64,000 nucleotides of DNA, from positions 744,001 to 808,000 of the forward strand of contig JAYWIR010000033.1 in NCBI GenBank assembly GCA_036172245.1. Direction: 5' to 3'. Of this stretch, positions 6,950-64,000 are shown in pieces. The stretch comes from Raillietiella orientalis (taxonomy: Eukaryota). Position numbers and translations under genes: made by a program. The notes below the pieces were generated by a model. The model saw nothing but the letters and a program-made list of their open reading frames with translations, did no database searches and was not told the DNA's origin. Position 1 is the first letter of the stretch, and each line of letters begins with the position of its first letter.

Positions 6950-8138
6950 CAAGGTTAGGACTCAATGAGAACAACTCCGACGAGAAGTTCGGCCTTCTCC
7001 TTGGACGCACGGCCACACTGGCCAAGGAGAACGGATGGATGGTATGCAGCCCCGCCAACTCCTCTGCATGGCTGGAGGAATCTGTTGGCACGTGGGCGAA
7101 GATAAACCATCAGAGAAGTGACAACTGGAACTGCCTATGATTTAGCCCCTACGCCTGCTGCACCCTGGGGACCATTCTGGAGTGTCCCGCCAGAGGCACT
7201 TGGGCGAAGACCACCCCTTTAGCTACGGCGCTGCCCTTCCTACAAAAGGCCCTCGTCAGAGGCCGTAAGCCGAAGTGGCAAGTCCCCTGTCGGATCGCGG
7301 GCAGAGAGAAGATGTGCGGTTGGACCATGGTAAAGCTGTCGGATGCCACGACCCAGAGCGTCCTTCCGCCTGGACTTTTGCGATGGGGCGAGCTGCTCGG
7401 CATCCCGACGGATGACTTGAAGTGGCCCCAGGTATTGAATGGTTCCAGGATTCTCCCCCTCAAGTGGCACGAGTCGGCGCTCTTGTTGTTGCATTGGGTT
7501 CTACCCTGCAACGTCCGCCGCTTCCATTGGACGAGGGAGGGGTAAACTCTGAGTGCGCCAGGTGCGGGGAGCGGGAGTCCCTCCCTCACCTGATAGTTGA
7601 CTGTCCTGCCCTCCGGCCCCTGTGGGAACGTTTCGGGATGATCCTTGGGATACCGGTTGGCGGCAATCCCAGAGACATTTACCACCTTCTCTTCGTGCGG
7701 GACGCCCTGCAACCAGCCGCAGCCCTGGCAGCACTTTGCTGCATCTGTGGGATTGTGGCGGCCTGGAGTGAAGCCGAAGATGAAGACGCCAACGAAAGGG
7801 ACGTCATCCCGTATGCTGTTCGCTTCCTGCAGAGAGCTACCGGATGGTCCCAGCTAGGTGGAATGAAGAAGGACCTCGAGGGCATCCTGCAAAGCATGGA
7901 CCCTCCTCCCAGTGGTGAGTGATCAACCTTCCTGGCCCTCCAAACTCTTTTTTTTTTTTTTTTTGGTTTATTTTTCTTTTTGTTTTTTCCCCATCCCCTT
8001 CCACTGCCGAGGAGAGCCACGCTGGTCTGCGTCCCGGCAGGTCCTGTCAAATGTTGGCCGTTAGTGGGGCCTTGTACCACGTATTGTATTGACTAGAGGA
8101 AGAGTTTGAATAAACGTCCCGGCGTATCCGGGTGGCAA
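6950..8138 (+). mobile_element. L1/Tx1-like non-LTR retrotransposon 3' fragment (zf-RVT region plus 3' UTR)
   Basis: CARCGERESLPHLIVDCPALRPLW (C-terminal CCHC of L1-type ORF2), then a T-rich tract, AATAAA at 8109 and a terminal cccgg-cgtat-ccggg hairpin. Confidence 0.85.
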
Positions 8139-9471
8139 CAACGAGAAGTTCGGGTGGTAGTGTATCCTAACGGCTGGCTGAACTGCTGAGCATCCATTTT
8201 CTTCTGGCAGATGGCATGGATCTGAAATTCCGGAAGGACCAACATGAAGCGGGGAGTCCTAAATTTAGAGATGCTCAGAAAGTAACGACCAAAAACAGGT
8301 CTTTCTGGGAATGCCTTTCCTCTGACAGAGGGGCGTAGCCAACCCTCACTCTTTGGACAGTAGAAATCTGAAGCAGCTCCTTTCGTAACTGAAGGAGAGA
8401 TTCCGCGGAACTCTCATCGTGAGCGAATGAAGATGGCTGCGAATTGATGTGAAATGTGTGCGACTCTCACGAAGCTTTTGCTGCTTTTCTGGACCCCAGG
8501 AAGACTTGGCAGGGATGTTGGAACCATCAGCATTGTCATGCCACTCATTCAGAACACGTGAAACGAGAACGGGAAACTTTCGATCGCTAAAGGAAAAAAG
8601 GGAGTTTTAAGCTTTCCAGTTCGCGGGGCGAAAATCGCCAACTTCTTGCAGCCGCTTTTCGATTCCTTGTCTTTTGCAAAGTTGAATTCCCTCGGTTGAA
8701 TGGCCGAATCTCACAAGTTACTGCACAGCGTTACGGACAGAGGTTGTGGAACATTTTTCAGGAGTGCTCTTCCTTTTCCTCCTTTCCATCACCGCCCCAT
8801 CCTTCGCCGCTTTCTCCGGAAGCGTCCGCAGTCGTTCGACAAGAGCACTTCCGAGGTTGCCGCCACGACCGCAGGAGGAGCTTTCTAGGTAACGGATCGA
8901 ATCTTCCTCGAAATGCAGGTCCACGACGTGAGAGTTTTGCGGACTTTCACGGTCAAATATTCTTCCTGTCCTCTCAGATTGCCAGTCCGAGTTGGGACGC
9001 AAATCCAAGCTGAGCTACTCTTCACAGGAATTGCCAAAAATTGTGGATCTGAAGCGATGATCTGAATCTCATACTCGTTGCCATTGGCTCCGAAAATTCC
9101 AACGGGAATCAGGAGAACCGATCGATTGCGATTGCCCAGTTTGCTTTGATGGCTCCCGGAAGAGTCGTCCAGGACACATCAAGTGCCTCGCGGGACTGAA
9201 AAAAGCAGTGGGGAAGGCGAGGATGCTTCCCTTCCCTGAAAAGCAGCCGAAGAGAAACAGCAGAAGCGATGAGATGAAGACGCCCTCGCGTCAGCTTCCA
9301 TCGGCTCAGAACTAATCAAAAGATCCAAGGGCAGAGGAAGTTGAAGGCTCCTCATCAGCATTAGTTGTTTTTCTTCTTTTTTTTTTTTGGTTCGCAAATT
9401 ACTCACTAGAACCATTCGCCTCCTCAGGGAACTCACGAAGCTTTTTTAACACTTCACATAAGGGTGTCTAT

Positions 9472-10720
9472 AACACCCGGTAAGTCCGGGCGTCTATTAT
9501 AAAAATAATAAATGTACATATGTAGGGCCATCGTCGGAAAATGTTCAAAACCTGCCGAGTAACCGTCACGCAGGCCGATCAGGTGGTCGGCCTGCGTGCC
9601 GGGAAGGGGCAAACGAAAAATAAAGATAAAAGTCAATAAAAAAAAAAATTCTGGGGGACATGAGAAGGGATCGCAGTCCGCTGGAGCGAGTACGTCCCAG
9701 GTGGGGTCACCTTGCTGCGTCCGCAGGAAGCGCTCGGCGAAGCAGGTCGCGTCCCTGTCGCGTCGTCTTCCTCTCGCGTAGCTCCAGGACGCCACAACCC
9801 TGTGTAGGCAGCAGCAAAGAGCTGCTGGGGATGCACCAGGAGAAAGGGCATCGCAGGGCAGCGCTTCATCACGTCCCTGGGATTGTCCGTCGATGCACCA
9901 AGGGCCGTTGCGTAGCGCAACTACAGGGGCCGGAGGGCAACACAGTCTATGAGCAGGTGCAGGTGCTGGGACTCCCGTTTCCCGCACCTGCCACAGTTCG
10001 GTCCCACAGCCCCCGGGTCCAGCGAGATCGGAGGGAGTTGCACTGGGGGCCCCAGGGCAACAGTTGAAGATGGAAACCAATCTGGCTTACACCGATCTAA
10101 ACTCAAATCATGTAGGATTTTCAGTCGAACAGACTGCTACTATGAACCTTATTCACCTCATAGATACCTAATTCAACATCGAGGTCGCCAAAATTTCACA
10201 TCAATTAGAACTCTCCGTGAAAATTATGCTGTTATCCCTTAGGGAACTTTTTCTTCGTTTCAAGATCACTATTACTCCATATATAATTATCAAATCATGA
10301 AGATATTCATTCATTCAATTCTTCATCATCCGCCCCAGATAACATCCTTTCAAAATCTCACCTTACTATCACTCTTTCAATTTCTCTAAGACACTCGTTT
10401 TAAAGGGTCTTCTCGTCCCTTGAATTCATTATAGATTTTTCACTATAATATTAAATTCGCCACCACAAAACAAGACAGCTTTGCTCAATACAATCCGCCT
10501 CTCACCACTTCAGGGGGAGGACTCGGTTGTTCTTCAGCTCTAAGGGCCTCTCGAGCACTCCCTGCGGGATTCTCAGCAGCTCTCCCCAGCTCAATAATCC
10601 TTCCGGTGGGGCACTTGGGGTCGCCGTGTCCATTAGCTGGTCCAGCCACCTAATTCCTTGATCCTAGGTTATAGGGACCATATAAGTTCAGGTCTGGGAG
10701 GACCATCCTAGGAATCCAGG
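9472..10720 (-). mobile_element. L1/Tx1-like 3' fragment interrupted by a NUMT
   Basis: CGRCGKRESQHLHLLIDCVALRPL; homologous to the 6950-8138 copy on both sides of the 10064-10494 insert; terminal cccgg-actta-ccggg. Confidence 0.8.
10064..10494 (-). pseudogene. rrnL: NUMT: mitochondrial 16S (rrnL) rRNA 3' region fragment
   Basis: The plus strand carries reverse complements of universal mt-16S blocks in the correct order: ggcttacaccgatctaaactcaaatcatgt (16Sbr-like site), caacatcgaggtcgc, tgctgttatccct, gggtcttctcgtc. Confidence 0.93.
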
Positions 10721-23750: not shown

Positions 23751-24669
23751 CAGTAACCTACTGATGCTCAGGATTCCACAGAAAAACCGCTCAGGGTTCC
23801 CACTTGGTTCTCTTACTTGCTATGGAAACCAGGGCTTTCCACTTGGTTCTCGAGTGTCTTTTGAGTTGTTTAACGCTTTGCTATCACTTCGAATTTTGCG
23901 ATTCATTTAGAAATGAATAGGAAACTTCAGATGACTACGACTGTGAGCGGCCGGCCGTGCGCCCCGAGCAAGGGCCAATTAACGCTATTCCGCCATTTTG
24001 AAGTGGAATTCGGTCTTGCATGTCGCTTAGGTAGACCGAATCTCTATTGTCCTGAACGGCATTTCTCCATTTATTTATTTTTTTCTTTTGTGTTTATGTG
24101 AGGAGATTGTCTTTTCCATTGGGAGCACTGGCCAGGTCAAAAAATTCTTTATACAACGTCACTGATGACGGTGAATGATGCAGGGGTTAATGGAGGGAGT
24201 TTTAGAAATCGCTCCGATAAATTATTGTGCACAGTTTGCTTACAGATGGCATTCACACATTGAATTGTGCAACAACTGCTAACCTCAACCCGCAAGTGTG
24301 ATTTCCACATTTAAGGGTATACAGCGATCACGGTAATCAGCATCTAAGAATTACGAAGCTGTTGGTCCGTTAATGCCCGGATGCTATCATCCATCCTCTT
24401 CGGAATCTGCACTTTGAAACTTTGAAACGTCCAAAGGGTACAAGAAGCCTCTGCAAGAGCCTCAGCACCAACCATGGTTAATCATTGCTAACATTACTGT
24501 GCTGGAATTCCTAACACCCAAACGGTTAATTAATGGTTCGCTGGGTGGAGACTAAAATTTGTTACCTCCTCGACTTGCTGATGATGTTCAGTTCATGCCT
24601 TCAGAGTGAGGAGATTCGACAGTGATGCTGCAATTCGTGGTTGTGGGCAACGGCGATTCAGGAAGAACA

Positions 24670-24703
24670 AACGAATACTACGAAAGGAGTCGTAGTATTC
24701 GTT
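24670..24703. repeat. Perfect 14 bp inverted repeat (6 nt loop)
   Basis: aacgaatactacga-aaggag-tcgtagtattcgtt. Confidence 0.9.
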
Positions 24704-24804
24704 CGAACAGTCGAAACTGTGATATTATGAATTAATTATCTAAAGTCCGATCGACAATGTAATATAATTGTAATGTAAAGACAACTGTAGTGCAATGCAA
24801 TGTA

Positions 24805-25591
24805 CACAGTGAGGTCCGTAAGTTACAGGACTGAATTTTTCACGGCCCCACTGGTCACAACATGTACCTGGGCGTAGCGGAAATGTGTACTATAAGTCTT
24901 CCTTAAATACTGTACAAAGCGACGTGACCGTGTGTTTATTTATTTGTTGTCAAGAAAAGATGCTTCGCGCAACTCGTGCTTCTTGACCTTTCTCAAGATC
25001 TCGAGATGGACGTGAAGGAAGATCGGAGCACCGCAATAGAGTTTTGTTTTTAAAACTGATTTCACCGTCTTCGGACAGAGCGCCACCGGTCCAGAAGGCT
25101 TAGCGGAAACATAGCCCCGGGCCGTCCGAACATCTTTCACTGACCTCTCGAATGATAGTCCAAGCTCTCGGAGTACCGAAAACTGTCGCAAAGATTTAAA
25201 GGAGCGACAGCTGCGCGCACGATTCGTCCCTCATTCCCTGCCTCGAGAGCAAAGGGACACGCGAGTTGCTGCGCGCCGGGATTTGCTGGACACGATCAAG
25301 ACGGACAAGAGCTCTCCTCTCGTCCACTTCCTATTGCCCGAAATCAACTTGAAGCGGGAAAGGGGTCCGACTGGGTACCATCGATGACATTCAGATAGGC
25401 CGTGACGGAGCCTTCGAAGGAGGTCCCTGATAGGGAGTGCTCCAGCGCCATGCAGAAGTCAGAATCCCGCGCTCAGCAGCGCACAGAGCCAGGTGGATTC
25501 TATTCTGAATGAACAAAATGTAAACAGAAGTTATTCCGTTTCTTTCTTCTTTTTTTTTTTTTTAATTTTCATACTTTTGGACTGCACTGAG
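24805..25591 (+). mobile_element. Internally deleted mariner element with degenerate TIRs and TA target duplication
   Basis: TA|cacagtgaggtccgtaagtt ... acttttggactgcactgag|TA. Peptides MDVKEDRSTAIEFCF, RARFVPHSLPREQRDTRV (WVPHEL motif) and GGFYSE* (G.YFE* end). DDD domain missing. Confidence 0.8.
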
Positions 25592-25779
25592 TACGCATTT
25601 ATAACCTTTGATGGCAGATGCCCTATGGCATATTTTTTGACGTAAGGTACTTCGAGGGAAACATCTTGAAAGGAGCAGTATTCTCTTACTTCTTGTATCT
25701 CCCCAGTCCATCGTGCGGTGGGGTGGGTTGATCGAACGATCAAAAGCAATTCAGCCCACAGCGAACACTGACGTCACTC

Positions 25780-25820
25780 TTAACCCTTTGAGTGCTGCGG
25801 ACGCATCTATGCGTTTGGCA
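25780..25820 (+). mobile_element. piggyBac-like terminus
   Basis: TTAA-CCCTTTgagtgctgcgg followed by a subterminal palindrome acgcatctatgcgt. Partner end not identified. Confidence 0.5.
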
Positions 25821-26819
25821 AATGTTTTTTTTTACCTTATCCCCGCGACCCGAGTTGACACTGTCGATGTTTGAGATGGACACTTACGTTCTTGTGATTC
25901 CCTTGGCAACAACAGTAAGCAAAATTCTGTTTATATCGGCTAACTGTTCTCAATTTTTCAGGGTCAGGTCTCTCTGAGAAGCCGAGAATAATACCATAAT
26001 ATTATAGTTGCGTCGTATGTAATTTATTATATTGTACCATGCCCAAATGAATTGTTGATTTTATTGGAATTACAATAATAATTTTAAAATAAATAACATA
26101 TGTTTGGGAGAAATGAAATTATTTCATTTAATGTGGTGCAAATAAACAATTACAATAGCAACTTTAATCAGCCCTTTACAAAGTCAATTGGTACCTCTGA
26201 TAGAGCACGCGGCACGCGAAAGAGCGTTCGGTCCACGGAGGTCGCAGCTGCGACCCGCGTGCCGCGACGCAGAAGAGTTGAGCTCTGCACACCTTACTCG
26301 TCGGGTGTCTTCTCCACCTGGAAAAGGTTTGTTTCCCGTATGGAGGGGAAAAGGGGTCAGGGGACGAGCGGGATGGACTGTTCGCTGCATACGATCACTT
26401 TGCCCCCGGCGTCTTGCTGTCAGAACTGTTCTCCTGCCAGCTCCCTCGATCCTTCAGAGGGCGCAACTGATGGTCCATGCTGGCCACCCTGCCTCAGCAC
26501 CTCACATTCCAGTTTCTTTCTTCAAGAGCCCTGTCAAAAAATTTTCCTTGCAGAAGAAACCTGCAGATCCTCATCAACAGGACAAAGGGCACTGACGATG
26601 CTCCGTACGAAGAATGCCAAAAATGACCTTCAACGCGGGGTCATGGGCACAACTCGTCCGCGAAAGAGAGTCCTCGAAGGATCTCGATTCTGGGACTGTG
26701 ATGGTGGTTCCACGCCTTGTCCACTCTCCAATCTTGGGAGAGGGTTCTGCATCTGTAAAGATGGATGTTAATTTCAGTGCTCTCTCATGCGGGGCAGCCT
26801 TCGTAGCTAGAGCGACTCA

Positions 26820-28196
26820 TCGCAGGATCCGTCCGTGGTGAAACATCGAGTGGCAAACTGGTGAACCTCCAGGCTCGCTTCCTCTCGCAGTTTCCTTTGC
26901 CACCGAGCTGCATGCTCGAGAAGAGGTGAACAACCACGCCCAAGGGGCCATCCCAGTCATCGCCAGTGCAGCCAACCCCCGTCGCAGCGAGGATGGTCGT
27001 CGGGACGCGTTGACAGGGTGCAGCGGTGTTCGTGCCACCCGGTGGCCATATAGACGAGCGACGCCTCTGGTTCTTTGCGCTCTTTCCCGAGATTTCCCTG
27101 CTGGACATCTGGAAGGTGGTCGGAGGTTCCCGGTGCCCTCGGATGCGGTTGGCATTGATCCGCCGAGTGCAGGACGTGGTCTGTGGCGCGCGGTTCGCCC
27201 CTCCTCCCCAGTCAAGTAAGGTCGAGCTCTCTTCCGCCATGCACATCGCGCTCCATCAGCAAGGCGACATATGCCCTTAGAAGACACATAGGCAGCAGCT
27301 TTACGGTTAGATGGGAGGTTACTGTGGAAACCTCCGGAAGGGGGAAAGGACTGAGCGAGTGGACGACGGGCTAGCTCACCGACGCCGCGATCCCAATTGC
27401 CTGACCTCGTGGACTTTTGCCCTGGGGCGTGCTTTTGAGTATTCCGAAGGAAGACCTGCAGTAGCCCCCGGTGCTCATGAACACCCGCATCCTCCCCTTT
27501 GAGTGGAGCTGATGCTGCTGCACTGGGGCCTCCCGTATAACACTCACTAGCATCATTGGACACGGGGGGAGGGGGGGACCCGAACTGTAACAGGTACGGG
27601 GAACGGGAATCCCTCCCGCACCACCAGTGGACTGTATTTGTGTTGCCCCATGTTGCCCTTCGGCCCCTTTGGGGACGCTTTGTTGCGTCCCCGTGGATCC
27701 CCGAGGGCAACCCCAGAGACGTTTTAAAGCACCTCTTCCTGCATGACGCTTTCAAGCCGGCCGCGTCCCTAGCAGCATTTTGCTGTCCACGCGGCGGGAC
27801 CGTGGCTGGATGGAGCAACGCCAGAGGAGGTCAGAACGGCAGGGACGCCATCCATTTGCTGTCCTCCTCATGAGGACAGCGTAAAGATGGCCCCATCTGG
27901 GAGTCTTGAAACAGGGACTTGCCGGCATTCTTACGGGGATGCAGAGGACACCCTCCAGCAGCCGATGATCTCTTCCCGAACTCAACCCATTTTATGTTTT
28001 CTGTTTTCTGTTTATTTCTTTTTGTTTGTATATCCTTCCCCTGTACTGCCGAGGCGCCCCCCGCTGGCCTGCGTGCCAGTTCCCGGAAGGTTCCTTCTCG
28101 TAGTTATGAGTAACGTGGCAGGATCAAACGTCCTGCCACAGGCATGGATGTTTGTTGTTTTTATAAATAACGTGGCCTTGGCGTGACCGGGTGTCT
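26820..28196 (+). mobile_element. Internally deleted L1/Tx1-like copy (APE-like piece fused to the 3' end)
   Basis: 26820-27270 matches the 15965-16330 region; 27270-28196 matches the zf-RVT/3' UTR of the other copies. Confidence 0.8.
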
Positions 28197-29399
28197 CCCA
28201 GCACGGATCCTCGCGAAGGGCGCAACTGGCTGAGAGGGACTCCCATCCCTCCTCGTCGCTCGCGAGAGATTGCTGAGGCGTAGCGGATGCCAACTCCTCC
28301 AGATGGTCCATCAGGCCTTTTTTTTACTCGGTTTTCTAAGATCCGAGACGTACACTCGCGGAAAACCTGCATCAGAGTGAAGTGTTTTCTTTATGGTCAA
28401 GGTTTGAACGCTCACGCAGGACAGTTGCATTCAAAGTATGCAAATCGTCACGATGGTGTGCGAACTCGTGTACCCGTAGGTCCCCCGACGAATCAAGGGA
28501 CAAGGACAAGCCTTTGTCAGGTGATAAGGGTGAACACTGAAGACGTTTTAGGACCTCTTGCAGCATCTTTGAAATCCTGAATTTTAAAAGCATGGTGAAT
28601 CCTATAGGTTGCTTTTGCAATCACGTTTACCACTGTAAACGTGATTGCAAGTATATAGAAAATGTGTTGCTAGCAACTATCCTTGTGTAAACGAATACTC
28701 CATCATTCTTTCAAGAGCCGGAACGAATTAATGTGTCTCATTCGTCAGTTTGCAAACGGGAATTTCAGAAAGAAGGAGGCGTAATTGGTGTGGGAAGGGT
28801 TGGTTCTCGATCCCTCACAACCTTTCCTCGAGAAGCAAAATGTCAGTGCAAGAAATCACGAATCGATCATCACGTACATATACGAATAAGAATCGGATAA
28901 TGGATAATTCATTGTCTTTTTTTTCTTTTCATAAATACGCCTTGTGCTTGGGGAATTCATAAACGAAATAATATTATCCATTTTCTATGAGATTCCAGCT
29001 TAGAATTCGCATTATAGACAGATCAGTCAATAATGATACTTCACTGCAAAATGCATCGGATGCTCACGTAAGAATGATACAGATACACAGAGCACTGCTC
29101 CATCATATTAAAGATCTGCAATGCGGCAGTTCTGGAAAGAGCCACATTTCTCTAATTCATATTATCTGCTTGGCTGGAAGTTATATCAGCAAACTGTTAC
29201 TGCAGAGGAGAAGATTCTATTACCTTTGAAAATTCTGGAACTGACTATAAGAACGCATCAGAGGTGGAAAAAAAAGCCTTCAGAAGAATCGTTTCTGTAA
29301 AGCTTCGAGATTATTCCAAGGAATTTTGGAATTGTGAAGAGAAGAATCACAAACTCTGCCTGTGTGGAACCGTTCTGGTTTCATGACTGTAGGCTATTC

Positions 29400-38650: not shown

Positions 38651-39899
38651 GGAATTCCGACATATGAAAAAGTGTTTATTTGTACTTTTGTAGATGTTAA
38701 CTTTGAAAGAAAAAAAGGACTAGATTACGGGCACGTGCACGGAGGTAGTCGAAAAGAGCTGGCCAACTGTCCTGATCATCGACCATGTTTCGAAGTCTTG
38801 CGTCGCGATGAGTAGGAGATGCCACCACTCCCGGAAACCGCACTTCTCACCGAAAAGAAAAAAAAAAAAAGGCGATCTAAGAGGGACAGAAAGCCGGACC
38901 GGTAAGAGGTGGGTGCTCTGGCCGTTCATAGAGATCGTTCTTTGCTCGACACTGTACTGAGGGCTTTTTTTACTTTATGTTTTTTTCTCTGAAGACCACC
39001 CGGGGGTATGCGCCGGGGGTATGGAAAGTGGGATCCCCTCCGTATGGATTCCCTGGCGACCCTGCACCCTGTCCCGAAAAGCGCGGGAAGAGGCGCGCAC
39101 GAGAATCGACGCAGGAAGCGAAGCTGCGCGCCTCCCACGCGCTGCAACTTCGTAGTGACGAGAGCTCACAACACGGCCGAAGGTGTTCTTGCGGTGTTCG
39201 CTCGCCAAAAAGCTGTGATGTGTCCACCGTTCGAGGCTACTCGGTAACCAGGCAGGAAATTCTCATTCGTTTTTCTCATTCTCAGAATTCTCCGTGCTAT
39301 GTATTTCAGTTTTGCTGCACATTTCCAGCGCTCGATAAAGGAAGCCTCCTCCATAAATGATGAATTGTGCTTTCGGGATTTTGACCTCTCGGTATTCGGA
39401 ACGATGGGGTTGGGAATTGTGAGCGGAACCCGCAAGGATGATAAAGATGGCGCCGATCCTCAGCCCAACCAATTGCCAGCCATCCCACATTCCTGAATCA
39501 ACGGAGCCAAAGGCTCGCACCTGTGGAGTGACCGACCGTTAGTTTTCCGTAACCGAAGGAACGGTCAGCAGTCTCTGCGAAAGGAGAGACCTTTCGCTGG
39601 GGGGGGGGGAGGGGGAGTCTCATCTGGCCGGGGTGTTTGAAGCACGGAGTAGCGCTTCCTCCTGGATAGCAGGGGTCGCTGACGTTTTCTTTGCTTCCGC
39701 CCCCTCGAGGTGGCTTGCCGTGTCGGGACGGCGGTCTCAGCCTCCTGATTCTGGAGCAACTGGAGCCTCAGCTCCAGTTCGAGACTCTTGCCCTAGTGGC
39801 GAAGTTTTGGAACACCACTTGATGCACCCCTGCACGCCTCCTCATCACCGAGCAGGCCACCGGCAGCCCTGGACTCACGTCCTTCCTTGCCCGAGCTCC

Positions 39900-40740
39900 A
39901 CTCAGTCTCATCCACGGCGGATTGCAACCTGCGGCAGGCGGCCACGCTGACCAGGAAAAATGGATGGATCTCGTGCTGTACTGCGAACGCTAGTGTCTGG
40001 CTTCAGGAAACCGTTCTCACGTTAGCGAGGATCCAGGAGCCAAGGAAGGAAGAGGTGCGACGTTTCCTGTACGTGCGCAACAACAACTGCACGCTTGGGA
40101 GATCCTGGAAGATCCCGTGAAGAGTGCATGGGCAAGAAGAACCTCCCTCGCCGCAGCGCCACCCTCCCTTAGGGAACACATGTACCAGCAGCCTTACGGC
40201 TAGATGGCAAGTTACTGTGGAAACCTCCGGAAGGAGGAAAGGAGCATTGGACTCCGAGTATTCGATCTCGTGGACTTTTGCGCTGGGGCGTGCACTTCCA
40301 ACGGAGCATCTGCAGTGGACTCCGGTGCTCATGAATACGCGCACCCTCCCCTTAAAGCGGCAGAAATCGTTTCTGAGCCGTCTACAGCGTGTTTGCATGT
40401 AGCGACGCAAGAGGACCTAGCGACAGGGGTGCCACATCCACATCGCCTTCTGCTTCGTGAAGATGGCCCCACCTGAACAGCAATATCCGGCAAGACTTTG
40501 CCGGCATCCTACAGAGGATACAGAGGACCGCTCCCAGCAGACAGTGATTCCTTTCCGCGCACCCACCCCCGCCACAAATTATTTTATTTTTATTTTGTTT
40601 CTTTTTCTTTTTTGTTTGCCCCCCCCCCCCCCCTTCTGCTGTCGTGGTGGACCTCACCGGTCTGCGAGCCGGTAACGTGGCAGGTTAGATCTAAAAAGGA
40701 CGGGGTTGGTGCCCTTTTTAGATCTAACCTGCCGCACGTC
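39900..40740 (+). mobile_element. Internally deleted L1/Tx1-like 3' fragment
   Basis: QAATLTRKNGWISCCTANASVWLQE matches the 7010-7090 region; 40170-40360 matches 27280-27500; followed by the T-rich tract and gacc-tcacc-ggtc hairpin. Confidence 0.8.
40679..40733. repeat. Perfect 21 bp inverted repeat (13 nt loop)
   Basis: ggcaggttagatctaaaaagg / cctttttagatctaacctgcc. Confidence 0.95.
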
Positions 40741-42900
40741 GGATAGCGTGTTCCAGCCCCGGCCTACCCTGGTGAAAATCGAGGTGGCTCGCAAAGAGGG
40801 AACCATGCCGCATCCCTTCTGCTGATCCTCAAACCAGTGGTGTTTTCGAGGAGAATCCGGGAGCGTCTCGACTGCTCCTGTCCACCTCGGCATCTCGACG
40901 GACGAGGGGGCCGAAATGTTCCCCCTCGATGGTTGCCTCACTTCCCCCCGGGAATGAATTCGGAGGGATGGCGAAAAGGAGGACAGCAGTGGTGGTGGAG
41001 GTGGTGAGGAGGGAAAGGAAGCATCTGAGTCGATCGCGGCGTTCCTGCTGATCGACCCAAGGGGGCTGGAAGGAGACGTCGCCGCCGGAGCCTGCGGGGT
41101 TGAATACAGGCGAGAAGAGATGCGTGGGCTCCCCGCGGAGTCGCGGGGACACGAGGCAGTCTCTTCTGCGGGTGACCTCTCGCCCGAGGAAAGGTCTCAG
41201 GGAGGAAGGGAGGGGAGTCGTCGCATCCCTGGCGGCGTTCAGCGATGACGTACCTCGGTCGTTTGGGGAGGCAGTCGCGCGTGTCTAAAAGGCCGGCAGC
41301 AAACCGAACTTCTAGGATTGTCCAAGGAAAGAGCCGGGGGGAGGACGGTGCTGGACCACAACGGAACGCGCGCACGTGCTTCCCAAAAGCTGAGTGGGGG
41401 GGGGGGGCGCCAGCTCGTCAGCCACCGCGAAGAGAGGCGCAAGTGCCCCTGGGAGGTACCGAAACGGAGGAGGAGCAAGGGAACTTCCCGTTCACACGGT
41501 GGTAGGAGAGGAGGGAGGGAGGAGAGCCTTCACGCCTGAGAGTGTACCAGGATAGGGGCGTACCTTGAGCGCGATGTTGGTCAGGACGGGGGTCAGCTCC
41601 CCAGAGCGAAAACGCGCACAGACAGCAAGCCCCTCTACCTGTCCTAGTGGACGGACGTTCTAGAGGGAGGGGCTGCCCGTCTCTTCCGGATCTGCGGTTC
41701 CTGACGAACGGTGACTCCGCTCCCCCCTCGTTGGAAGGCTGGAGGAGCAAGAGAGATGGTGGGGACGCGCAATCTGATAACCTTGGAGGAATGAAAGATG
41801 GTGTGGAGCAAGGAAATCATGCAGCCAAAAAGGGACAGGGTCCTTCGTTTCTTCGGGGCTCTGTGAATCCCACAGGAGGGTCTCTCGGGAACACGTTTGG
41901 GGAAACTCCGGTCCCCATCCGTCCTCTCTTTTGGTTTTTGTTTTAGTCTTGACTGCGGGAGAAGAGTGGGGGATTCGAACAAGGGCATCCTCTGGCTCCG
42001 AATCGCAGGCTGCGTCCGGAATGAAAGCATTCTGGAAGGAAGGAGGATTCGGGAATGTCCACCTCTGGGACATCCGGCTTTTTTTTCCGATCGGGATTTT
42101 TGTACCTAGTCGACCTCTTTGGCGCTTCTTCTTCTTCTCTCTTTCATTTCTTCCATGTGTTCTTCTTCTGATTCTTTTGCCCTCCTCCTCCCCGTCTTTC
42201 TGCTCCGCGTGATCTGATTTTCTCTTCTTTCTTCCGTCTCACCACATTCGCGCGTTGCTGAGCAGCAACCGGATGACGGCGTGGATTTCCGCGTTGGAAA
42301 TCCCCGGAGAGCTTCGAAGGCTTCCGTCGCTTTGTGGGTCGGAAACGTTCCCTGATGCTGCCCCTTCGTGTTCTGCCTTTCCTCCGGATCGCAGTAGACT
42401 CCCGCGGATCCTACTGCCTCCGTCCCGAAGAGGAAATTTCGGGATGCAAATGGAGCGAAAATGATTCGGAAAAAAAAAATAAAAAAAAAAAAAGGCGGAC
42501 GAAAGCCCTCGTGGTTATTCGCCTCGTCGTTCCGTCCGAAAGAAGGCATCACACTTTCCGGCCTGCCATCCTTCTCGGGTGGTTTTCCCCTCCTCCCTCC
42601 GCCTGGATCTCTCCCTTCCGGTTTTTCTCAGGATTGATTTCTCAGCAGTGATTTCAAGTCCGCCCGGGACCTTTCCTCCCTCCCGAAGGGCAGTTGTCTT
42701 CCTCTCATCTGGCAGTACCAGCGGGACGGCGCTCCCTCCTTCCTCCCTTGCGGCCGTGTGCCGAATTTTGTGGGTCCGGCTTTTTAGAGTACACGAAGAT
42801 CGCGTGCGATGTTTTGCGTTTGTTCTCTCGGATCCTCGCGGTGCCTGCAGCATTCCTTTTCGCTCCATCACATCTTAGCTCGCTCTATCGCACAGCCCTC
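40740..42900 (-). mobile_element. Possible ORF1/gag-like relic of a non-LTR element
   Basis: GC-rich, Pro/Arg-rich minus frames with a decayed knuckle (RFGTSQGHLRL). No intact ORF. Confidence 0.3.
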
Positions 42901-44069: not shown

Positions 44070-45175
44070 GGAGGAGAAAAAAAAAGGGAAAGAAAGAAAG
44101 ACGTGAATACCGCAGCAGCGATGGCAATCTCGTGGGAAACCATTCCTCGCCACGGCAGGAAGTGAGGTTACCACGGGGACGCCGACGAACGTGGAAAAAG
44201 GCCGTATCAGGAAAAAATTCCTCCGGCGAAAAGTTGGTGCTGTTATCAGTGATCATCGATGATCTCAGTCCACTGCTGGATGCGTGTGCGTGCGTTTTTT
44301 TTTTTTTTTTTTGTCGTTTCATTTCCTTTTCTCCCCCCCCCCCCCGACCACGGGAGAGCAGTGGCTCTCCCGTGGTCGTCGTCGTCCATCGGTTTCACAG
44401 ATGGTTGGGCACACTGATTCGCATGTGTGTTCCGTGCCACATCAATATCGTGCTAACGACGTGCATTTAGTCCTCCATCAGCAACGAGAGAGACACAAAA
44501 TCACTTCCAAATTTTTTTCTGCGATAAAAACACGCGTTCGCGCAAGTTGCGAGCCGATTTAATCAGCTTCACACAAGCAGGAGGAAGGAAGGAAAGGGAA
44601 AAAAAAAAAAAAAAAAAAAAAAAGAAAACGGTCTCCTGGCTCTCGAAGCACGCAGTCTTCAAAATTATCGGATTTTTTTTTTTTTTTGTTCTTTCCTTCT
44701 TCTTTTCTTTCCCTTTTTTTTTTTTTTTTTTCCTCCTTTTCCGCCTTTGCTCGAAGCATACTTCTTTTACAAACAAAACAAACAACCAATCAAAAGCCCT
44801 GCTCACATGTCCAGGTTACCCGAGCAGCATCTTCCGTGCAGTGCTGGAACCGAGCGCAAAAGTGCAAGTGGATGTGCGCGAGTGTCCCCTGGAGCCAGTC
44901 GAAAATGCCTGCTGCGGCGCGGCGGTACGCGGGCGTCGTCGCGGCGTAGCACGCGTCCCAGGGGGAACGGAAGCTTGCAAAAGTGTGTTCTGTGTGTGCG
45001 CGCCCGCGCGCGCCCGCGTGTTCCTTTCCTTTTTCTCCACTCCCCTCCCTCCCTCCCTCCCTCTCTCTCTCTCTCTCCCCTCATTCTCCCATCCCCCTCC
45101 TCCGGGGAGGCCCGTTTTCATCCCCCCTCTCTCCCCTCCCCCCAGGCGCCCCACCCACCCCCCTTGCCCGCGCCA

Positions 45176-46212
45176 ATGCGCTGCCTAGCGTTTCTCTCCG
45201 TGCTGCACGTCGTCGCCGTGGTCAGCGTCCGCGGTTTCTCGTCGGACGCCTGGGGAAACTGCGAGGTGATCAAGATCGAGATGTGCGAGAATCTCGGCTA
45301 CAACATGACCAAGATGCCCAACTTTGTGAACCACGAGAACCAGCTGGAGGCCGAGCAGCAGTTGCAGACCTTCACGCCCCTGATCCAGTACGGCTGCTCC
45401 AGCCAGCTCCAGTTTTTCCTCTGCTCCGCCTTCGTCCCCATGTGCACCGAGAAGGTCCCCAACTCCATCGGCCCGTGCCGTTCTCTCTGCAAGAACGTGC
45501 AGATGCGCTGCCTGCCCGTCCTCCAGGAATTCGGGTATTCCTGGCCGCCTTCGTTGAACTGCTCCTTGTTCCCCCCGGAGAACAACAACGAGCACATGTG
45601 CATGCAGGGCCCCGAAGAAAGGGCCGCGAACGTGCCTTACATCTCGGACTACCTCTCCAAAGTGAACCTGAACAGGTTCCAGAAACACAGCTACCCGAAC
45701 TTGCGAACCGGCGGCATCTTATCCAGCCACTACGCGAGGATCCCGGGCGCCTCGCACCCGGCGGGGTCCTGCGCCCATCTGAAATACTCCCAGAATTACC
45801 TGTACATCAACCGGACCAAAAAATGCGCCCAGAAGTGTGACGCCGACGTCATCTTCACCCGCGAGAACAAGAGCTTCGCCGAGGCGTGGTTCGCAGTGTG
45901 GTCGTCGCTGTGCTTCCTGTTCTCCCTCTTCACCACGCTGACCTTCCTCATCGACTCGTCCAGATTCTGCTATCCCGAAAGACCCGTCATATTCCTCAAC
46001 TTGTGCTTCTGCCTCCACAGCATCGGCTACATCGTCAGATTGCTCGCGGGCCGTTACGATATTTCGTGTCACTTTGAAAGTCAGCATGCGGCCCAAGTTC
46101 TTACGCAAGAAGGCCTCACCAACACCAACTGCGGGGTCGTCTTTCTTTTGCTGTACTATTTCGGAATGGCAGCCTCGATATGGTGAGAATTGTTGCTTGG
46201 ATGCTGTGGCGG

Positions 46213-49200: not shown

Positions 49201-52200
49201 TCTCCCGCTCAGGCCAGCTGCCGGGGAGGCTTCGTGCAGGTTGAGGGCCGGACACGCAGGGTGGGTCCCTGCCGGGACGCAGGGGTACGTTTTTCCGACT
49301 GGTCGGCCCCTTTTCGCCTTATCGGGAACCGCCGCCGCTGCTGCTTTTCTGTTTGATCTGCGTCGCGCCCGGCTTTGAATTCATTAACCTTGTGCTTTCT
49401 GGCGTCTCCCCGCGAGCGCCATCATTGCCCGTGTCTCACCGTCGCTTCCTCTCTTTTGTGGCTGTCTGCAGATAAAAAGTCCTCGAGAGATCGCCTATTC
49501 TCCGTCTCCAAGTCGGGAGGGAGAGAACTTCGCCCAGGAAGCGCATTCTCGCTCAGCGCCATTGATCACTTTATAATTGCTGTCTGTTTTTTTTTTTTTT
49601 TGTATGTGTGTGTGTTTTGCGGAGGGAATCCCGAGGTCGTGTCGGTCTTCTAAACGAACCGGGAGGGGTCGGAGGACCTCTTTTGTCTGGGGGAAGGGTG
49701 CAGTCGAACCGTCCGAGTGTGCTCCCCCTACTAAACCGTACGTAGGCGGTGATTCGTCGTGCACGTGAAGAAGGAAAAAAAAAAAAAAAAACATTCATAG
49801 GGTTCCTACTGGGAAGTTGCGATTCCAGTGGTCGTAAATCTTGCATGAAATGACATTTCTTTTTTTTTTTTTTTTTTTCCTTCGTCTTTCACGACCGAGA
49901 GAAATCGATTGTATTGCAATTCAGCGACTGTCCGATCGTTTTCCTATGGAAATCCGCGTCCGACGCGCGCGCGCCATTTTCGATTTTTTTTTCTGTTTCG
50001 AAACGAGTTGCCCCCCCCCCCCCTCAGTCCCCAAGAGCCTTCCATTAACTGTTTTTCCTTCCTCCTCTTCATCAGGTGGGTCATCCTGACGCTGACTTGG
50101 CTGCTGGCCTCGGGATTGAAGTGGGGGCACGAATCCATCCAGAAGCAGTCGAGCATCTTCCATTTATTGGCTTGGGGTATTCCAGCGGCGCTGACCATCT
50201 GCGTCCTTGTGCTGCAGAACGTGGACGCTGACGAACTCACAGGTAATTGTGGAAAAAGGCATCATCGATGATCTCGGCGATCGGCGTTCTTCTGCCGAGG
50301 AAGTTTTTCAATTTTTTTTCTTACGGTGCTTCTGTTTCGTGCCCAAGTGATTTCCCGCTTGTCGTGGCCGTCGCCGCGCTCCGTGGTTGCCTGGCGCCAC
50401 GAGGCAGCGCCGGTTGATGAGTGAATCTTTGGCGAGTACGAGGGCGTGACTTCTCGCTGAGTTCCTTCTCATGACCTCCAGCACACCTGGTTTCCCGCTC
50501 ATGGGGTTGATCTTGACCTCCGCGCGCGCGCGCAGTCGAACAGCAGCTTGGAGCGCAGCCACGCTATCAGTCTTTCTCGTGAAAGTCCCCTCCTTTTTTT
50601 TGGGGGGGGGGGGATGCTTCCTGAGGGTTCGTGTCCTGGAGTGTCTTGCAAATGGCACGAGGGTCGCGCGCGGCGAGGACTCTTTGCCTCTTTCCGTTTC
50701 CCGGCAACACTCGCGCTCCTGGTGCGCAGGAGAACCGCACGGTGATGCCTTCGGCGGGAACGTGGATTCCAGGGAGCAGCCGAAAGGCAAGCACCGGGAG
50801 GCGTTCGGGAGTGCTCCTGCATCCCTCTCGGCCACTCTACGTAATCTTTGTGGTCCAGGGGACTCCTGAAGGCGGACGCGGCGGCGGTATCATCTCCCGT
50901 TGGGGAGGGGGGAGCATCGAATGCGTTCGGAGGACTTCCCACTCCTTTCGTTTCCACCAGTTTAGCGCCACTCGTTCCTGTAAGTCTTTAGCCCTTCTGG
51001 GTGCTTCTCCCCGGCTCGTTCCGATCTTCAAGAGTCCGCCCGGCACGCGCTGCGTGCGTAGCCGCTTTCCAGAGACCCCAGGGAAGAATGATCCCCAGAA
51101 AAGAGGCGCGCTCGTGCCAAGGCGCCCCGAGAGAGGGCGCCAGTCTCGGCGCTCGCATAGAGACTGGCTTTCCGTTGGTGTTGGCGCACGCCCGGACCGT
51201 CGGCTGATGCTGATGCTGCTGCTAACTTTCGGGGGGAGTAGAGCTGCGAACGGCCGATCCCGAAGGCGGCGGGCGAGCAGCGCGTTGCCCCTTCCCCCCG
51301 CGACCTTCGCCAGCTGCGGCTCTCGTTGCGAGCAGCTCAAACGCTCGAGGCGGCCTCCGCCTGTCGCGCGGCGGCGGCAGCAGCAGCTGGTCTCTCCTCG
51401 TCTTCGCCCGGAAAGTGGGGAGCACTGGAGGGAGGTGCCCTCATTGTCCACGTCTCGGGGAGTTCGCAGGGGCGACGACGGGCGGCGTGTGTGGTACGGC
51501 TCGGGATGTCCTCTCTCTCTCTCTCTCTCTCTCGCGTGTGTGTCGTCCTTGGCCGGTTCCCCGCTCCGCCCTTCCTCATGCTCATTTGCCTGCGTGCCTC
51601 CCTCCCGCTTCCCTCCGCGGAATTCATCTCTGCCACCGCAAGCGTCGGTCCCATCTTCCGACGCGTCCCCGGAAAGCATTCCTCACTTTTTCAAAGGATC
51701 CCGGCCTCCTCCTTTCCTCCTCCCCCTTCGCTAGCAGTGCACCCTCCCCCTCCTCTGCAACTTGGCAGGCGCGCCCCTTCCACGCCTCCCAAGCGACTCG
51801 TTCGGGTCGAGTCGGGAGCCAGGATACGGGCGGGGTGTCCTGGGAGGCGCTGTTGCTCCCGGAGAAGCAAATCCAGCTCGCACGCCTCCACTTCGCCTCT
51901 GTCCCCCTCTCCCCCCCTCTCGGAAGGCGTTTTGACAGCAGTGTGTCCAGGTCCCCACTCCAAAACGAGGCTGCTCCCTCCCCCCGTCGCTCTCAGACAC
52001 CCCGGCCGACGCCCCCTACCTGCCTTGCGACGCGCATGTGGCTCAGAAGAGGAAACGAAGGGACCGGGAGATGTGAAGCGCCGGGGCGCGACCGGGCTGA
52101 AAGGGGCAGTCGACTCCCGGGCTGCCCTTCCGACGTGTCTTCGCAAGGAGGCCGAGATGTGGCAGTCGCACGTGCCCTCGGGAGAGGGCAAGTCCCGCGG

Positions 52201-53741
52201 AGGGAGGCTTTGCAAAAAAAAAAAAATTGCAAGAGGCAACACGCAAGCACCGGCAGGACGCGCGGAGAAGGGAGGAAGCGGAAGGAGGGTCTGTCGCGCG
52301 GGAACGGTTCCCGCGCAAGAACTGAGCAGTCCGAACGCGCCGTGCGGAGGAACTCGGGGGCTGTGCAGGAGTGCAGGGCTGCCCGCCGCCCCGGGGCTCC
52401 TCCCGGTGGTCTCCGTCCTCCAGTCCGGCTGATCCAGTCGTCCCTTCTCCGGAGTGCGTGTCATGACCCCGCCCATCGTCGTCCCTCTGGCGCTCGGCTG
52501 CGGCAGCAGCCTTTCTCCTTCGCCTCCAGCCGCTAGCCCGAGAGGGGGAGACCCGACTTCGGGATTTGACCGCAGCGCGTGGCAGGGCGGGCGCCCATCC
52601 CTCGAGAGACGCGCGGGAAGGACGCTGGAACGCGCACGCGTGGGGCGGGTGGGGTAATGAGGGTGGGGAGGAGCGCGGAGAGAGAGAGCAAGGAAAGAAC
52701 CCGTTCGTTCGCTTCGCCCCTTTTTCGCGCTGCGCGCGCGTGCGCAATCGCGTCGGTCCGTCATCTCCTCTCTCTCACTTCACCTTTTCCCCCTCACCTC
52801 CCCCCTTTGTTCCCTTTTCGGAGTTCCCGATCACGGGATCGGGGAGGAGGGGCCGAGGACGGCGCCCCTCCTGTGGTCAGCGTGAGAAGATTCAAGGGCG
52901 ACCTTTGTATGCGTGTGGAACGAGAGGGAGCGATGGGAAGCACGGACTGGATTGTTAGGCGAGTCACTTCCGGGATCTACTGTTCGCACATCCTCCCCTT
53001 CCTCTGGTGGCTTTCGATCCCGGTGGTGGCGCCCCGCGCGCGCGGAGGCGAAAGGGAAGGAGGAAAGAAAAGGTCGTGGTGTGTTACTGTCGATCCTCAG
53101 CCTCCTCCGCTCCCCTCCCACTTGGCCCACGCCAGCAACCCCCCCCCCCCTACCCGCTTCCCGCCATCACTTGTTCTCTCCCATCCGTTCCAGGCGTCTG
53201 TTACGTCGGCAACCAGAACACCAGCGCCTTGCTGTACTTCGTGCTGCTGCCCAACGTCGTGTTCCTGGTCTTCGGCACCACGTTCGTGGGTACCGGCTTC
53301 CTCTCCATGTGCCGCATCCGGAAGCAGATGAAGCACAAGGGCACGAAGATCGAAAAGCTGGAGGTGCTCATGGTCAGGCTGGGGATCTTCAGCATCCTCT
53401 ACACCGTTCCCGTGACGTGCATGATCTCCTGCCTCTTCTACGAGTACCTGTTCCGGGAGGATTGGCTCTCGAACCAGGTCCCCTCCGCCAGACCCAAGCC
53501 GGAGATTTTCGTCCTGAAGATTTTCATGAGCCTGATCGTCGGTATCACGAGCGGGATGTGGGTCTGGAGCGCCAAGACGGTCCAGTCCTGGGGGAAGCTG
53601 TTCCGGTTCTCGGACCATCGCAAGAAGCTGCAGCCGCCCGCCTTCCCGCGCGGCGCGCCTTCCGTCCAGGAGGTCCACTGCATCCGGGACAAGTCCAAGA
53701 AGCAGAAACAGTTCTGGAGGAACGGGGAAACCTGCGTGTGA
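45176..53741 (+). CDS. fz4: Frizzled-4-type Wnt receptor, 573 aa; exons 45176-46182, 50076-50242, 53194-53741
   Basis: Signal peptide; CRD with [56 protein letters not shown] (FZD4 signature); [50 protein letters not shown] (KTxxxW) and C-terminal ETCV PDZ ligand. 1007+167+548 nt. Confidence 0.97.
46215..46243 (+). repeat. (GT)n microsatellite just inside fz4 intron 1
   Basis: About 14 GT units starting about 30 nt after the donor site. Confidence 0.9.
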
Positions 53742-61960: not shown

Positions 61961-64000
61961 ATGAGAGGCAGCATGGGCAAATTCGACTTGCCGTTCTTCG
62001 AAGGAGCAGAAAAGGCTTTGGAGATTTGGTTCACCAGGAAGGACCTGCAGATCGAGAATTGTGACCTGAGAAGGATCCCGGAGTAAGACGTTCCTCCTCG
62101 GGAAATGGGGAATTTTTGCCGGGTGCTTTCAGGCGCGAGGTGCGGAACATTCTGAAATTGGTGAATTGTACTGTACTGAGCTTCTCCAAGAATGAATACA
62201 TCAATGCCTATCTCCTAAGGTACGTTCGTTTGTGTCCTCCCGCACCTAAATAAAAACGTGTTCAAGTGAAAGCAGCATGTTCATCACCAAAAGGCAGTTC
62301 ATTTTGAAAACATGTGGGATGACAACGCCGTTGCGGTGTTTGGAAACTCTGAAGGAAGTTGCCATGAAGTATTCCGGTTTTGACGAAATAGCCGTGAGTA
62401 TCAGACCCCATTCCACCCCAAGTTGACGTCGTCTTCTAGTAGCCGGAGTTCTAATTGCTACCGATTTGTTTTTCTTATTAAATGCTTCAAGTTCACGGTC
62501 TATTTTGTTGTCCCGTGATAGTTTCTAAAGACCCATTCAGTTTTGAGTATTTTCTACAATTTCTTCCCCTTTACGTACACCTTTTGCTTACAGCCCTTTT
62601 ACGTGTTCACTGGCTCGGTGCTGCATCCAAAAGTAAATGTGGTGTCTATCACGGAGTCACTCCAATCTCCTTTGTCATGTTTCTTAACATTTCTTTTTAG
62701 GACTATTTTTATTCACACAAGGGATTCATGAAACCTGAAATTCAGCCGTATCCGTACTTTGATTTCAAACTAGAAGTGGAAGTTTTAAATACAGTGTTCA
62801 ATGGTACAAGATACTGATGTGTAAAGTTAATTTATTCCGGGCTCATTTGCCCTTTTCAGATGGAAAGGCTTATTGCCTAGGACAAGAACTCAGCAACGCT
62901 TTATATCTATACAGCAGAGCACAATCAAAAAAAATTAACAAAATCAGATCCATGGAAGACTCGGATCAAACTTTGGAAATAATAATGACGGATCTAGATC
63001 CCGATGTAATGAGGATCTTTACAAAGAACGTCTCCATAACTCCAGAAATAGCCAGAAAGGTAACCTCTGGAGTTATGTCCTCTTATCACCTTGATTTGCA
63101 GGCATCAGGATTAGATGCACTAATGGGAGGTTTTCAGTGGGATGATCACCTTTTTGATCCTTGTGGATATTCATTGAATGCGATAAATAAGTCTGTAAGT
63201 TGATCTTTGTTTTCCTGTTGAACCTACACATGTTTGTATACTTGTAAATATGGTAGATGATATGAATTGTTTTTAGTTGTATTTTTAGTATGATCAATCG
63301 TTATTATTATACAATTATTGTTATGTAAATGTAATTTAGCTCAGTAAGGAGGAGAAGGGCTGGAGTAAGTATGGAGACAACTACAAGTCACTTCAACTCT
63401 TTCCTGTTATCCTCCTGAAAGGTTATTCAGATGCCTTATGAGTTATCTTATCAATACAGTTCACTGTGGAATTCTAAATTCTAGAAAGATGAACTGAATT
63501 GCTAAGGATACTCTTAAAGGCTGAACAGTGTGACTTTCATGGACTGATCTTGAGTTTGCTGTGCCTTGTTTCAGGCTTCTAGATAGACCGTCTGCTGGCT
63601 ACTAGCACATAATTGGTCAGATATAATCGAAACACAAATGGAACAAGGTGCATGCCTGATGAGCTATGCATAATGTATTCGTGGGTACCAATCTCCTTGT
63701 ATGAGAATACTACAAAAGATGCCTACTAATTTACTTAAAATCTGTTTCTTGTAACTTCTTATGCATTTTGAGCCATGTTCTGCAGAATCTTCAATGTGCT
63801 TGTGTTCTCTGAGAAGAGAGCTCCAGCAACTATTTACTGATATGTACAGAAGTATTCTGTCAGCATGAGCTAAGAACCATGTTAATTCTCCATGATATGA
63901 AATTGTTGTTGCAGTCCATATCACAATGTGTTGCAGGGCCACTACGTCACAGTACATGTTACACCTGAATCAGACTATTCCTATGCTAGCTATGAAACAA
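61961..64000 (+). CDS. AMD1: S-adenosylmethionine decarboxylase proenzyme, 3'-truncated; exons 61961-62082, 62133-62219, 62267-62393, 62701-62803, 62860-63059, 63102-63194, 63937->64000
   Basis: [23 protein letters not shown] self-cleavage/pyruvoyl site; [53 protein letters not shown]. Alternative in-frame ATG at 61973. Confidence 0.97.

Follow-up and report, generated by a model that had tools for sequence, protein, structure and literature searches.

Nine old copies of an apparent L1-superfamily LINE family share a conserved hairpin at their 3′ ends in a 64-kb stretch of Raillietiella orientalis DNA

UnaL2 of the eel and ZfL2 of the zebrafish, two long interspersed nuclear elements (LINEs), require a 3′ stem-loop for retrotransposition and carry no poly(A) tail. 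For LINEs of the L2 type, recognition of the 3′ stem-loop by the reverse transcriptase (RT) has been shown experimentally (PMC4176376, PMC1636434). Stringent-type LINEs are also known within the L1 clade: the passages of Ohshima 2012/2013 that deal with them (PMC3472496, PMC3747384) describe the LINE1-1_ZM lineage of maize and sorghum and L1-1_CR of Chlamydomonas, plant and algal elements with a conserved 3′ hairpin that carries compensatory changes and from which recognition by the RT was inferred. An animal branch of the L1 superfamily is the Tx1 clade (Tx1L, Keno, Kibi, Koshi, and Tx1-Mar), whose members frequently target specific positions within other repeats, as stated in the part of PMC4494074 that concerns them. 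Here, we analyze a 64-kb window from the genome of Raillietiella orientalis (contig JAYWIR010000033.1; all positions below are those of this window, the whole stretch of DNA studied). For positions 7990..28196, the original prediction had proposed an L1/Tx1-like retrotransposon family with a covarying three-hairpin 3′ untranslated region (UTR) and no poly(A) tail, and had contrasted such an end with L1. That contrast was overstated, since the passages cited (PMC3472496, PMC3747384) already describe conserved 3′ hairpins in LINEs of the L1 clade.

The window appears to hold nine old, 5′-truncated insertions of a single diverged L1-superfamily LINE family of the apurinic/apyrimidinic endonuclease (APE) type that used stringent-type initiation, a reading to which we assign a probability of roughly 0.6 on the strength of sequence comparisons. 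An nhmmer profile of the aligned 3′ regions found nine copies of the 3′ UTR at E ≤ 2.5e-27, the next match having an E value of 0.061. We label them c1 to c9, with cM/c6 denoting one copy; eight lie inside the range given above, and the ninth, c9, ends at 40774, beyond it. The eight termini of the original prediction were all recovered at their positions. Scanning the window for CYYGG-N5-YCGGGTG gave 6 exact matches and 10 with at most one mismatch, compared with 2.15 ± 1.35 in shuffled versions of the window, none of which (0/100) reached 10. The four sites with a mismatch comprise a palindromic echo of the copy at 9474, the real copy at 40758-40774 (+), and two unrelated sites (27129 and 53936). 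Eight of the nine copies end in a 5-bp hairpin followed by TG and one (cM/c6) in the hairpin followed by T only. All nine are truncated at the 5′ end, with lengths from ~330 to ~2,570 nt, and we regard them as dead, diverged remnants of one LINE family. Ordinary 5′ truncation also accounts for most of what had been described as many internally deleted copies; c3 alone looks internally deleted.

The identity of the family can be read from its second open reading frame (ORF2). Translation of cM yields the RT motifs GIRQDD-LSPLL and YADDLLLL at 19489-19746 and, near 20150, a thumb containing GGLGLLTLE. Both c1 (7542-7625) and cM (21196-21312) have a readable C-X2-C-X7-H-X4-C motif. The zf-RVT matches of the window score 21.2 and 17.7 bits, under the Pfam curated cut-off of 27.5. 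Among 5.8 billion proteins, the nearest is P0123, a 619-aa fragment with 68% identity over the thumb; by tblastn, cM is 52.7% identical to it over 239 aa of the RT. The best solved-structure match of P0123 is human L1 ORF2p (E 7e-40), followed by R2 proteins at 7e-17 or weaker, a ranking that leaves room for CR1, Jockey, I, and RTE, since L1 and R2 are the sole LINE proteins among the solved-structure matches. An exhaustive HMMER search returned 328 proteins at E ≤ 1e-30, all ~30% identical except one short fragment; most are 1,100 to 1,300 aa long with the RT beginning near residue 400. When ten relatives were scanned with Pfam, Exo_endo_phos and RVT_1 were present in nine and zf-RVT in seven of those nine, a count that leaves out P0123 itself and the APE-less P0124. 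The same combination of APE, RVT_1, and zf-RVT, the architecture of the L1/Tx1 group, recurs in most rows of a further listing of relatives. A search of the ESM Atlas returned generic RT clusters only, and seven distant RT loci related to P0123 (22 to 61% identity, short pieces) contained the UTR in no case. Within the window, no copy holds anything upstream of P0123 RT residue 265, and neither an APE domain nor a full-length copy was found. Together, the RT, thumb, and CCHC motifs and the best solved match to L1 ORF2p bear out the L1/Tx1-like label at the level of the L1 superfamily and support a non-long-terminal-repeat retrotransposon of that type; its endonuclease would be of the APE type, judging from the ~30%-identical relatives.

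The copies differ in how much of the element they keep. The longest, cM/c6 (19233..22147, +), is interrupted by c5 and carries the RT motifs, the thumb near 20107-20163, the CCHC motif, and a terminal hairpin (22131-22147) with T as the last base. It was recognized from its ORF translations, a zf-RVT match (E 4.6e-4), and the tblastn alignment of P0123 residues 265-498 to 19471-20163. Its first part, from the candidate duplication to the first RT match (19233-19470), contains a run of 16 A's and no recognizable RT sequence. Copy c1 (6993..8134, +) comprises the C-terminal part of ORF2 with the CCHC motif, a stop codon at 7920-7922, a 212-nt 3′ UTR, and the terminal hairpin plus TG at 8118-8134; residues 549-584 of P0123 align to 6991-7098, and zf-RVT matches weakly (E 0.0059). 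On the same strand, c9 (39719..40774) starts at the thumb and continues as far as the 3′ end (P0123 residues 483-598 aligned to 39718-40069), and its terminal hairpin (40758-40774), the 3′ arm of which reads CCTGG, has one C·U mismatch. The 3′ part of c8 (22148..22670, +; its 5′ part lies before 19232) was identified by the UTR profile (E 3.7e-42) and by similarity to the C-terminal part of ORF2 in c1; in its terminal hairpin (22653-22670), the 5′ arm has decayed, and the 3′ arm and TG are intact. The remaining plus-strand copy, c7 (27274..28193, 5′-truncated, terminal hairpin 28177-28193), was found by self-blastn and the UTR profile (E 2.7e-50).

On the minus strand, c3 (16340..17375, terminal hairpin 16340-16356) likewise covers the element between thumb and 3′ end, as placed by tblastn (P0123 residues 441-544 aligned to 17373-17071), self-blastn, and its junction sequences; the last reveal the apparent internal deletion, after a W-x-x-P-A-R motif. 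It is 97.3% identical to c7 in inverted orientation (16330-17143 versus 27387-28203; self-blastn), and the block of identity stops at the apparent deletion of c3. The terminal hairpins of these two copies differ at 4 of 17 nt, all transitions in or beside CpG, which fits rapid CpG decay as in methylated repeats. The 5′-truncated c4 (18196..18879, terminal hairpin 18196-18212) was found with pieces of the c1 ORF (tblastn to 18879-18425) and the UTR profile (E 2.6e-41), and c5 (21465..21791, terminal hairpin 21465-21481) is a short, 5′-truncated copy nested in cM. Finally, c2 (9474..10650, terminal hairpin 9474-9490) consists of the LINE 3′ part at 9474-10082 and ~10496-10650, recognized by self tblastn/blastp and the UTR profile (E 2.1e-36).

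Two of these minus-strand copies are associated with rRNA-like sequence. A fragment resembling the 3′ half of mitochondrial large-subunit (LSU) rRNA splits c2 (9954-10448, −, core at ~10083-10495; Rfam LSU_rRNA_bacteria, E 1.6e-22). Oriented like c2 and flanked by contiguous LINE sequence on both sides, this fragment probably represents mitochondrial DNA that was inserted into the nuclear genome. At its 3′ end, c4 adjoins an opposite-strand, diverged 28S rRNA fragment at 17960-18195 (+) from near the sarcin-ricin loop region (Rfam LSU_rRNA_eukarya at 18017-18139, E 1.8e-12), into which c4 may have inserted; a possible duplication of c4 at 18860-18881 is uncertain, as it shares positions with the LINE match. 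We considered an element specific for ribosomal DNA and rejected it, as one of the nine ends touches a 28S fragment, and does so in the opposite orientation.

Two of the nine copies inserted into other members of the family. The sequence of cM resumes on both sides of c5, and because cM hosts c5 and continues past it, the end at 22147 (c6) is the 3′ end of cM itself. The duplication flanking cM/c6 lies inside the ORF2 of c8, where it encodes N-K-R-L-L-W, the counterpart of A-L-R-P-L-W of c1, and the decayed zinc-finger region of c8 is found directly upstream of 19218. Since cM flanks c5 and its duplication sits in the ORF2 of c8, the order of events was c5 into cM into c8 (19218-22670). The two termini that the original prediction had listed at 22132 and 22653 are real; the first of them, ending at 22147, has to be assigned to the copy with the RT motifs, which starts near 19233.

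To locate the ends, the 30 nt after each copy were locally aligned with the region around each 5′ boundary, which carries out the mapping of target-site duplications and 3′ junctions suggested with the original prediction. Duplications of 13 to 15 bp were found in four copies (c1, c9, c5, and cM/c6). That of c1 (6980-6992/8141-8153) is identical at 13/13 positions and begins 7 nt past TG; these 7 nt are spanned by a looser alignment that contains a 4-nt indel, so that no A tail is present. TG is separated from the duplication by AAAA in c9 (39705-39718/40779-40792, 13/14) and by AAAAG in c5 (21446-21459/21792-21804, 12/14 with one indel). The candidate duplication of cM/c6 (19218-19232/22148-22162, 13/15) follows the terminal T with no intervening nucleotide. 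The matches of c1 and c9 outscored all shuffles; the same alignment of flanks found no duplication for c2, c3, c7, and c8. Because the duplications fix the 3′ boundary there, the element ends at the hairpin. Seven of the nine ends are followed by no A's and two (21465 and 40774) by AAAA; with never more than four, the poly(A) tail of relaxed L1 copies was seen in 0/9. The statement that no copy has an A tail thus holds for seven copies and fails for c5 and c9, which have AAAA before the duplication. The first bases of the flank are GCAAC after 8134, TCAAC at 16340, and GCAAC (after AAAA) at 21465, so that KCAAC opens the flank at three of nine ends; GCAAAC does so at a fourth (18196), and the remaining flanks are unrelated. 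This similarity may reflect a nick-site preference of the endonuclease, to go by these few junctions.

The UTRs have a common order: the stop codon is followed by a T-rich tract, a CCCTTCCCC-like box, and three structural modules, A, B, and C, which correspond to the three hairpins first described. Module A has an outer stem (CUGCCG…CGGCAG, UUGCC…GGCAA, or, in c5/c6, GUUC…GAAC) that encloses either GCAGACC-UCACC-GGUCUGC or a 6-bp hairpin with a near-invariant CUGCGU loop; in this 6-bp hairpin, 84.9% of cells are paired, with changes on both sides in four of six pairs. Module B is a hairpin of 9 to 11 bp whose sequence differs among lineages. In the six copies that align without gaps, 91.7% of its cells are paired versus 67.2% after shuffling (0/500), both-side, compensatory changes occur in 8 of 10 pairs, and slid controls pair at 25 to 53% of cells; of the other copies, c1 retains just 4 outer bp, c2 shows another short palindrome instead, and in c9 the hairpin is lengthened to ~23 bp. 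Module C reads AATAAA, 3 nt, CCCGG-N5-CCGGG, and TG. Overall, the UTRs are ~50% identical pairwise, and the columns of the terminal stem are 80% identical versus 36% for those of its loop, in keeping with the claim that the loop varies freely. The last 140 nt fold below shuffled sequences in six of nine copies (z from −2.47 to −5.21). Hence, across diverged lineages the 3′ end is conserved and can form stem-loops, as is expected of stringent-type elements. A comparison with Rfam (cmscan, whole window, E ≤ 1), also suggested with the original prediction, found no match inside any of the nine UTRs; on this basis we discarded the idea that the end contains a self-cleaving ribozyme or belongs to some other known RNA family.

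The AATAAA of module C bears on what the end is for. Five copies have the canonical hexamer, at 20-21 nt from the end, and two have a version that is one base off (AATAGA and AAATAA); thus, the predicted AATAAA or near variant is present in seven of nine. Could the hairpin and AAUAAA serve only the formation or stability of the RNA 3′ end, with a nonspecific RT that primes at the start of a short tail? The fixed distance of the signal in five copies, the AAAA in two copies whose ends are fixed by duplications, and a terminal stem free of compensatory change would all agree with this. We nevertheless consider this main rival rather unlikely. Poly(A)-primed reverse transcription is expected to leave tails of variable length, whereas seven ends have no A's and the other two have exactly four. 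Moreover, the two upstream structured modules, which a cleavage signal does not need, are also kept, and the two copies lacking AATAAA still end at the hairpin.

The terminal stem itself is conserved, not covarying. In module C, 41 of 44 cells are paired (34 Watson-Crick and 7 G·U) and 3 are unpaired. All seven wobble cells are C-to-U changes on the sense strand, arising from approximately five independent events (c3 and c7 share one), and there is no G-to-A change, a pattern that fits pairing of RNA on the sense strand. The stem is rich in CpG, so neutral decay should strike it harder than the loop; the opposite was observed. That the stem is kept better than the loop despite its CpG content suggests that the active lineages were under selection ahead of each insertion. 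An alternative is that the CCCGG..CCGGG palindrome acts as DNA, either as a site of second-strand nicking or synthesis or as the binding site of a host factor. The antisense strand folds as well as the sense strand, and the stem is kept as a sequence rather than through covariation, both of which such a role could explain. Yet seven of the seven tolerated changes are sense C-to-U, which gives G·U in RNA and C·A on the other strand or in DNA, with no G-to-A; furthermore, the loop is fixed in length and free in sequence. A role of the palindrome as DNA therefore seems highly improbable to us.

A number of observations weigh against recognition of a structured RNA end by an L1-superfamily RT. First, the predicted covariation holds for the middle hairpin (module B, 8/10 pairs), is marginal for the upstream one, where 38 to 51 of 500 shuffles match the pairing of module A, and fails for the terminal one, with 0/5 compensatory pairs, C-to-U wobbles only, and shuffles that pair as well. 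Second, the module B segments were picked because they fold, which inflates the count of compensatory changes. Third, c1 (z +0.19) and c6 (z +1.39) fold no better than shuffles, c3 (z −1.30) is likewise not below them, and since antisense sequences fold about as well as sense sequences, folding energy cannot separate the strands. Fourth, AATAAA is absent from two of nine copies (ends 22147 and 40774). Fifth, there are nine copies only, including the near-duplicates c3 and c7, so the statistics are weak. Lastly, with no full-length copy or APE domain in the window, the assignment of the family leans on one 68%-identical fragment and on relatives that are ~30% identical.

Several ends are followed by short sequences that resemble ORF2. 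Positions 28204-28274, after c7, resemble 20226-20296 of cM, which lies in ORF2 just past the thumb (nhmmer with cM 20190-20360 as the query, E 2e-8). In addition, the 13-mer CTCGCGAAGAGGG occurs in the window, with at most one mismatch, at three sites: within ORF2 (20232-20244), 31 nt past the end of c8 (22702-22714), and 13 nt past the end of c9 (40788-40800), the latter two in the same orientation as the ends of these copies. By our own estimate, ~0.08 such sites would be expected by chance; a version with two mismatches lies, again in the same orientation, 16 nt past the end of c7. Immediately before the 13-mer, the ORF2 site reads CCCTGGTG (codons P-W-C), which is near the CCGGGTG end of the element itself. 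An insertion of c7 into an older copy with its thumb upstream was ruled out, with nothing LINE-like detected in 26700-27270; because c7 is preceded by non-LINE sequence, simple nesting fails to explain its flank. Possible sources of the ORF2 sequence after these ends are an insertion hot spot in older copies, priming guided by microhomology, and template switching.

These flanks also raise the question of whether the copies have the same end owing to recent common descent, or to an insertion target or host repeat, rather than to selection. ORF2-like sequence past three or four ends could be taken as a trace of a target, and the 97.3% identity of c3 and c7 as a trace of descent. However, apart from that pair the UTRs are only ~50% identical, and the loops differ in nearly every copy; the duplications lie outside the hairpin, in flanks that are unrelated. 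A pattern scan for AATAAA-N3-CCCGG-N5-CCGGGTG matched 32 bacterial loci, by the motif only, and 0 viral contigs. As this 26-nt motif occurs in 32 bacterial loci and none has the UTR, the motif is unspecific and its UTR context is not. We find descent or a shared target barely credible as the source of the common end.

Returning to stringent-type initiation, the simplest model, the process might run as follows. The element RNA would end ~20 nt past AAUAAA, right behind the 5-bp, G+C-rich hairpin …CCCGG-N5-CCGGG-UG, and would probably be polyadenylated there. Cleavage usually takes place at about this distance from a poly(A) signal, and the AAAA before the duplication in two copies agrees with an RNA polyadenylated right after …GGGUG. 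ORF2p would recognize the structured 3′ UTR, that is, the upstream stem with the CUGCGU loop, the middle hairpin, whose sequence is free, and the hairpin at the terminus. Target-primed reverse transcription would then start at the last templated G, not within the poly(A), and occasionally a few A's further out, leaving copies with no A tail or with the first four A's at most. The LINE identity, the exact ends with their duplications, the 5′ truncations and nesting, and the stronger conservation of stems relative to loops can be read from the sequence; binding by the RT, the cleavage site of the RNA, and its polyadenylation are steps that we infer from the copies. The terminal hairpin might even act as a double ruler that sets cleavage 20 nt past AAUAAA and docks ORF2p such that the poly(A) is skipped, with …CCGGGUG guiding microhomology insertion at CCCTGGTG. 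We regard this extension as distinctly unlikely. If true, it would describe an L1-superfamily element with a polyadenylated RNA of which no tail is copied, and it would explain the ORF2 sequence past the ends of c7, c8, c9, and perhaps c3.

How does this family compare with the known systems? Mammalian L1 is the best solved-structure match of the RT (E 7e-40); common to both are truncation at the 5′ end, duplications that vary in length, and a C-terminal Cys/His motif, which is readable in c1 and cM. Mammalian L1 is of the relaxed, poly(A)-primed type, whereas the copies of the window are tailless with a conserved, structured end. LINE1-1_ZM and L1-1_CR, as portrayed in the passages cited above, combine, like the family of the window, an ORF2 of the L1-superfamily type with a conserved 3′-end hairpin with compensatory changes, which is read as an RT signal. 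They differ in having poly(A) repeats and partner short interspersed nuclear elements (SINEs) that share their tail, whereas the family of the window has an animal host and is tailless or ends in four A's; in addition, nothing structured follows its conserved hairpin, which lies 2 nt from the end. The 64 kb yielded no partner SINE sharing the tail, as all nine UTR matches run into LINE coding sequence, which is a weak negative in so small a window. UnaL2 and ZfL2 are similar in the 3′ stem-loop and the missing poly(A) tail and differ in belonging to the L2 clade. They end in (TGTAA)n after the stem-loop, according to the passage of PMC3747384 that treats them, whereas the family of the window has a single TG and no repeat. 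Like the Tx1 clade, the latter falls in the animal part of the L1 superfamily, and two self-nested insertions out of nine and three ends followed by the same ORF2-derived 13-mer may be Tx1-like traits, to go by very few events. Unlike the ends in the window, the partner SINEs of crocodilian Tx1-Mar carry poly(A) tails, as described in the part of PMC4494074 devoted to them.

Beyond the LINE copies, the window contains parts of two genes. A Frizzled-4-like receptor with at least three exons (44528-46183, 49849-50268, and 52959-53738, +) has the Fz and Frizzled Pfam domains, and its best matches, from an onychophoran and molluscs, are 55% identical; because this gene is in the window, the host is an animal. 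The low-complexity start of its ORF (44566-44757) gives many Rfam microRNA and small nucleolar RNA matches far under the gathering scores, which are most likely spurious. An exon of S-adenosylmethionine decarboxylase lies at 62763-63200 (+). Two G+C-rich ORFs, at 14490-15593 and 26817-27830, were dismissed as genes, having no Pfam match and R/G/P/A-rich translations.

For annotation, the nine ends, the duplications, and the nesting order provide exact boundaries for the family, which otherwise shows ordinary LINE biology. The family is new, but its kind, the stringent-type L1-superfamily LINE, is known, and it adds an animal, tailless example. The combination of AAUAAA at a fixed 20 nt with copies that are tailless or end in four A's would make it a simple model for how an RT acting on a polyadenylated RNA may ignore the tail.

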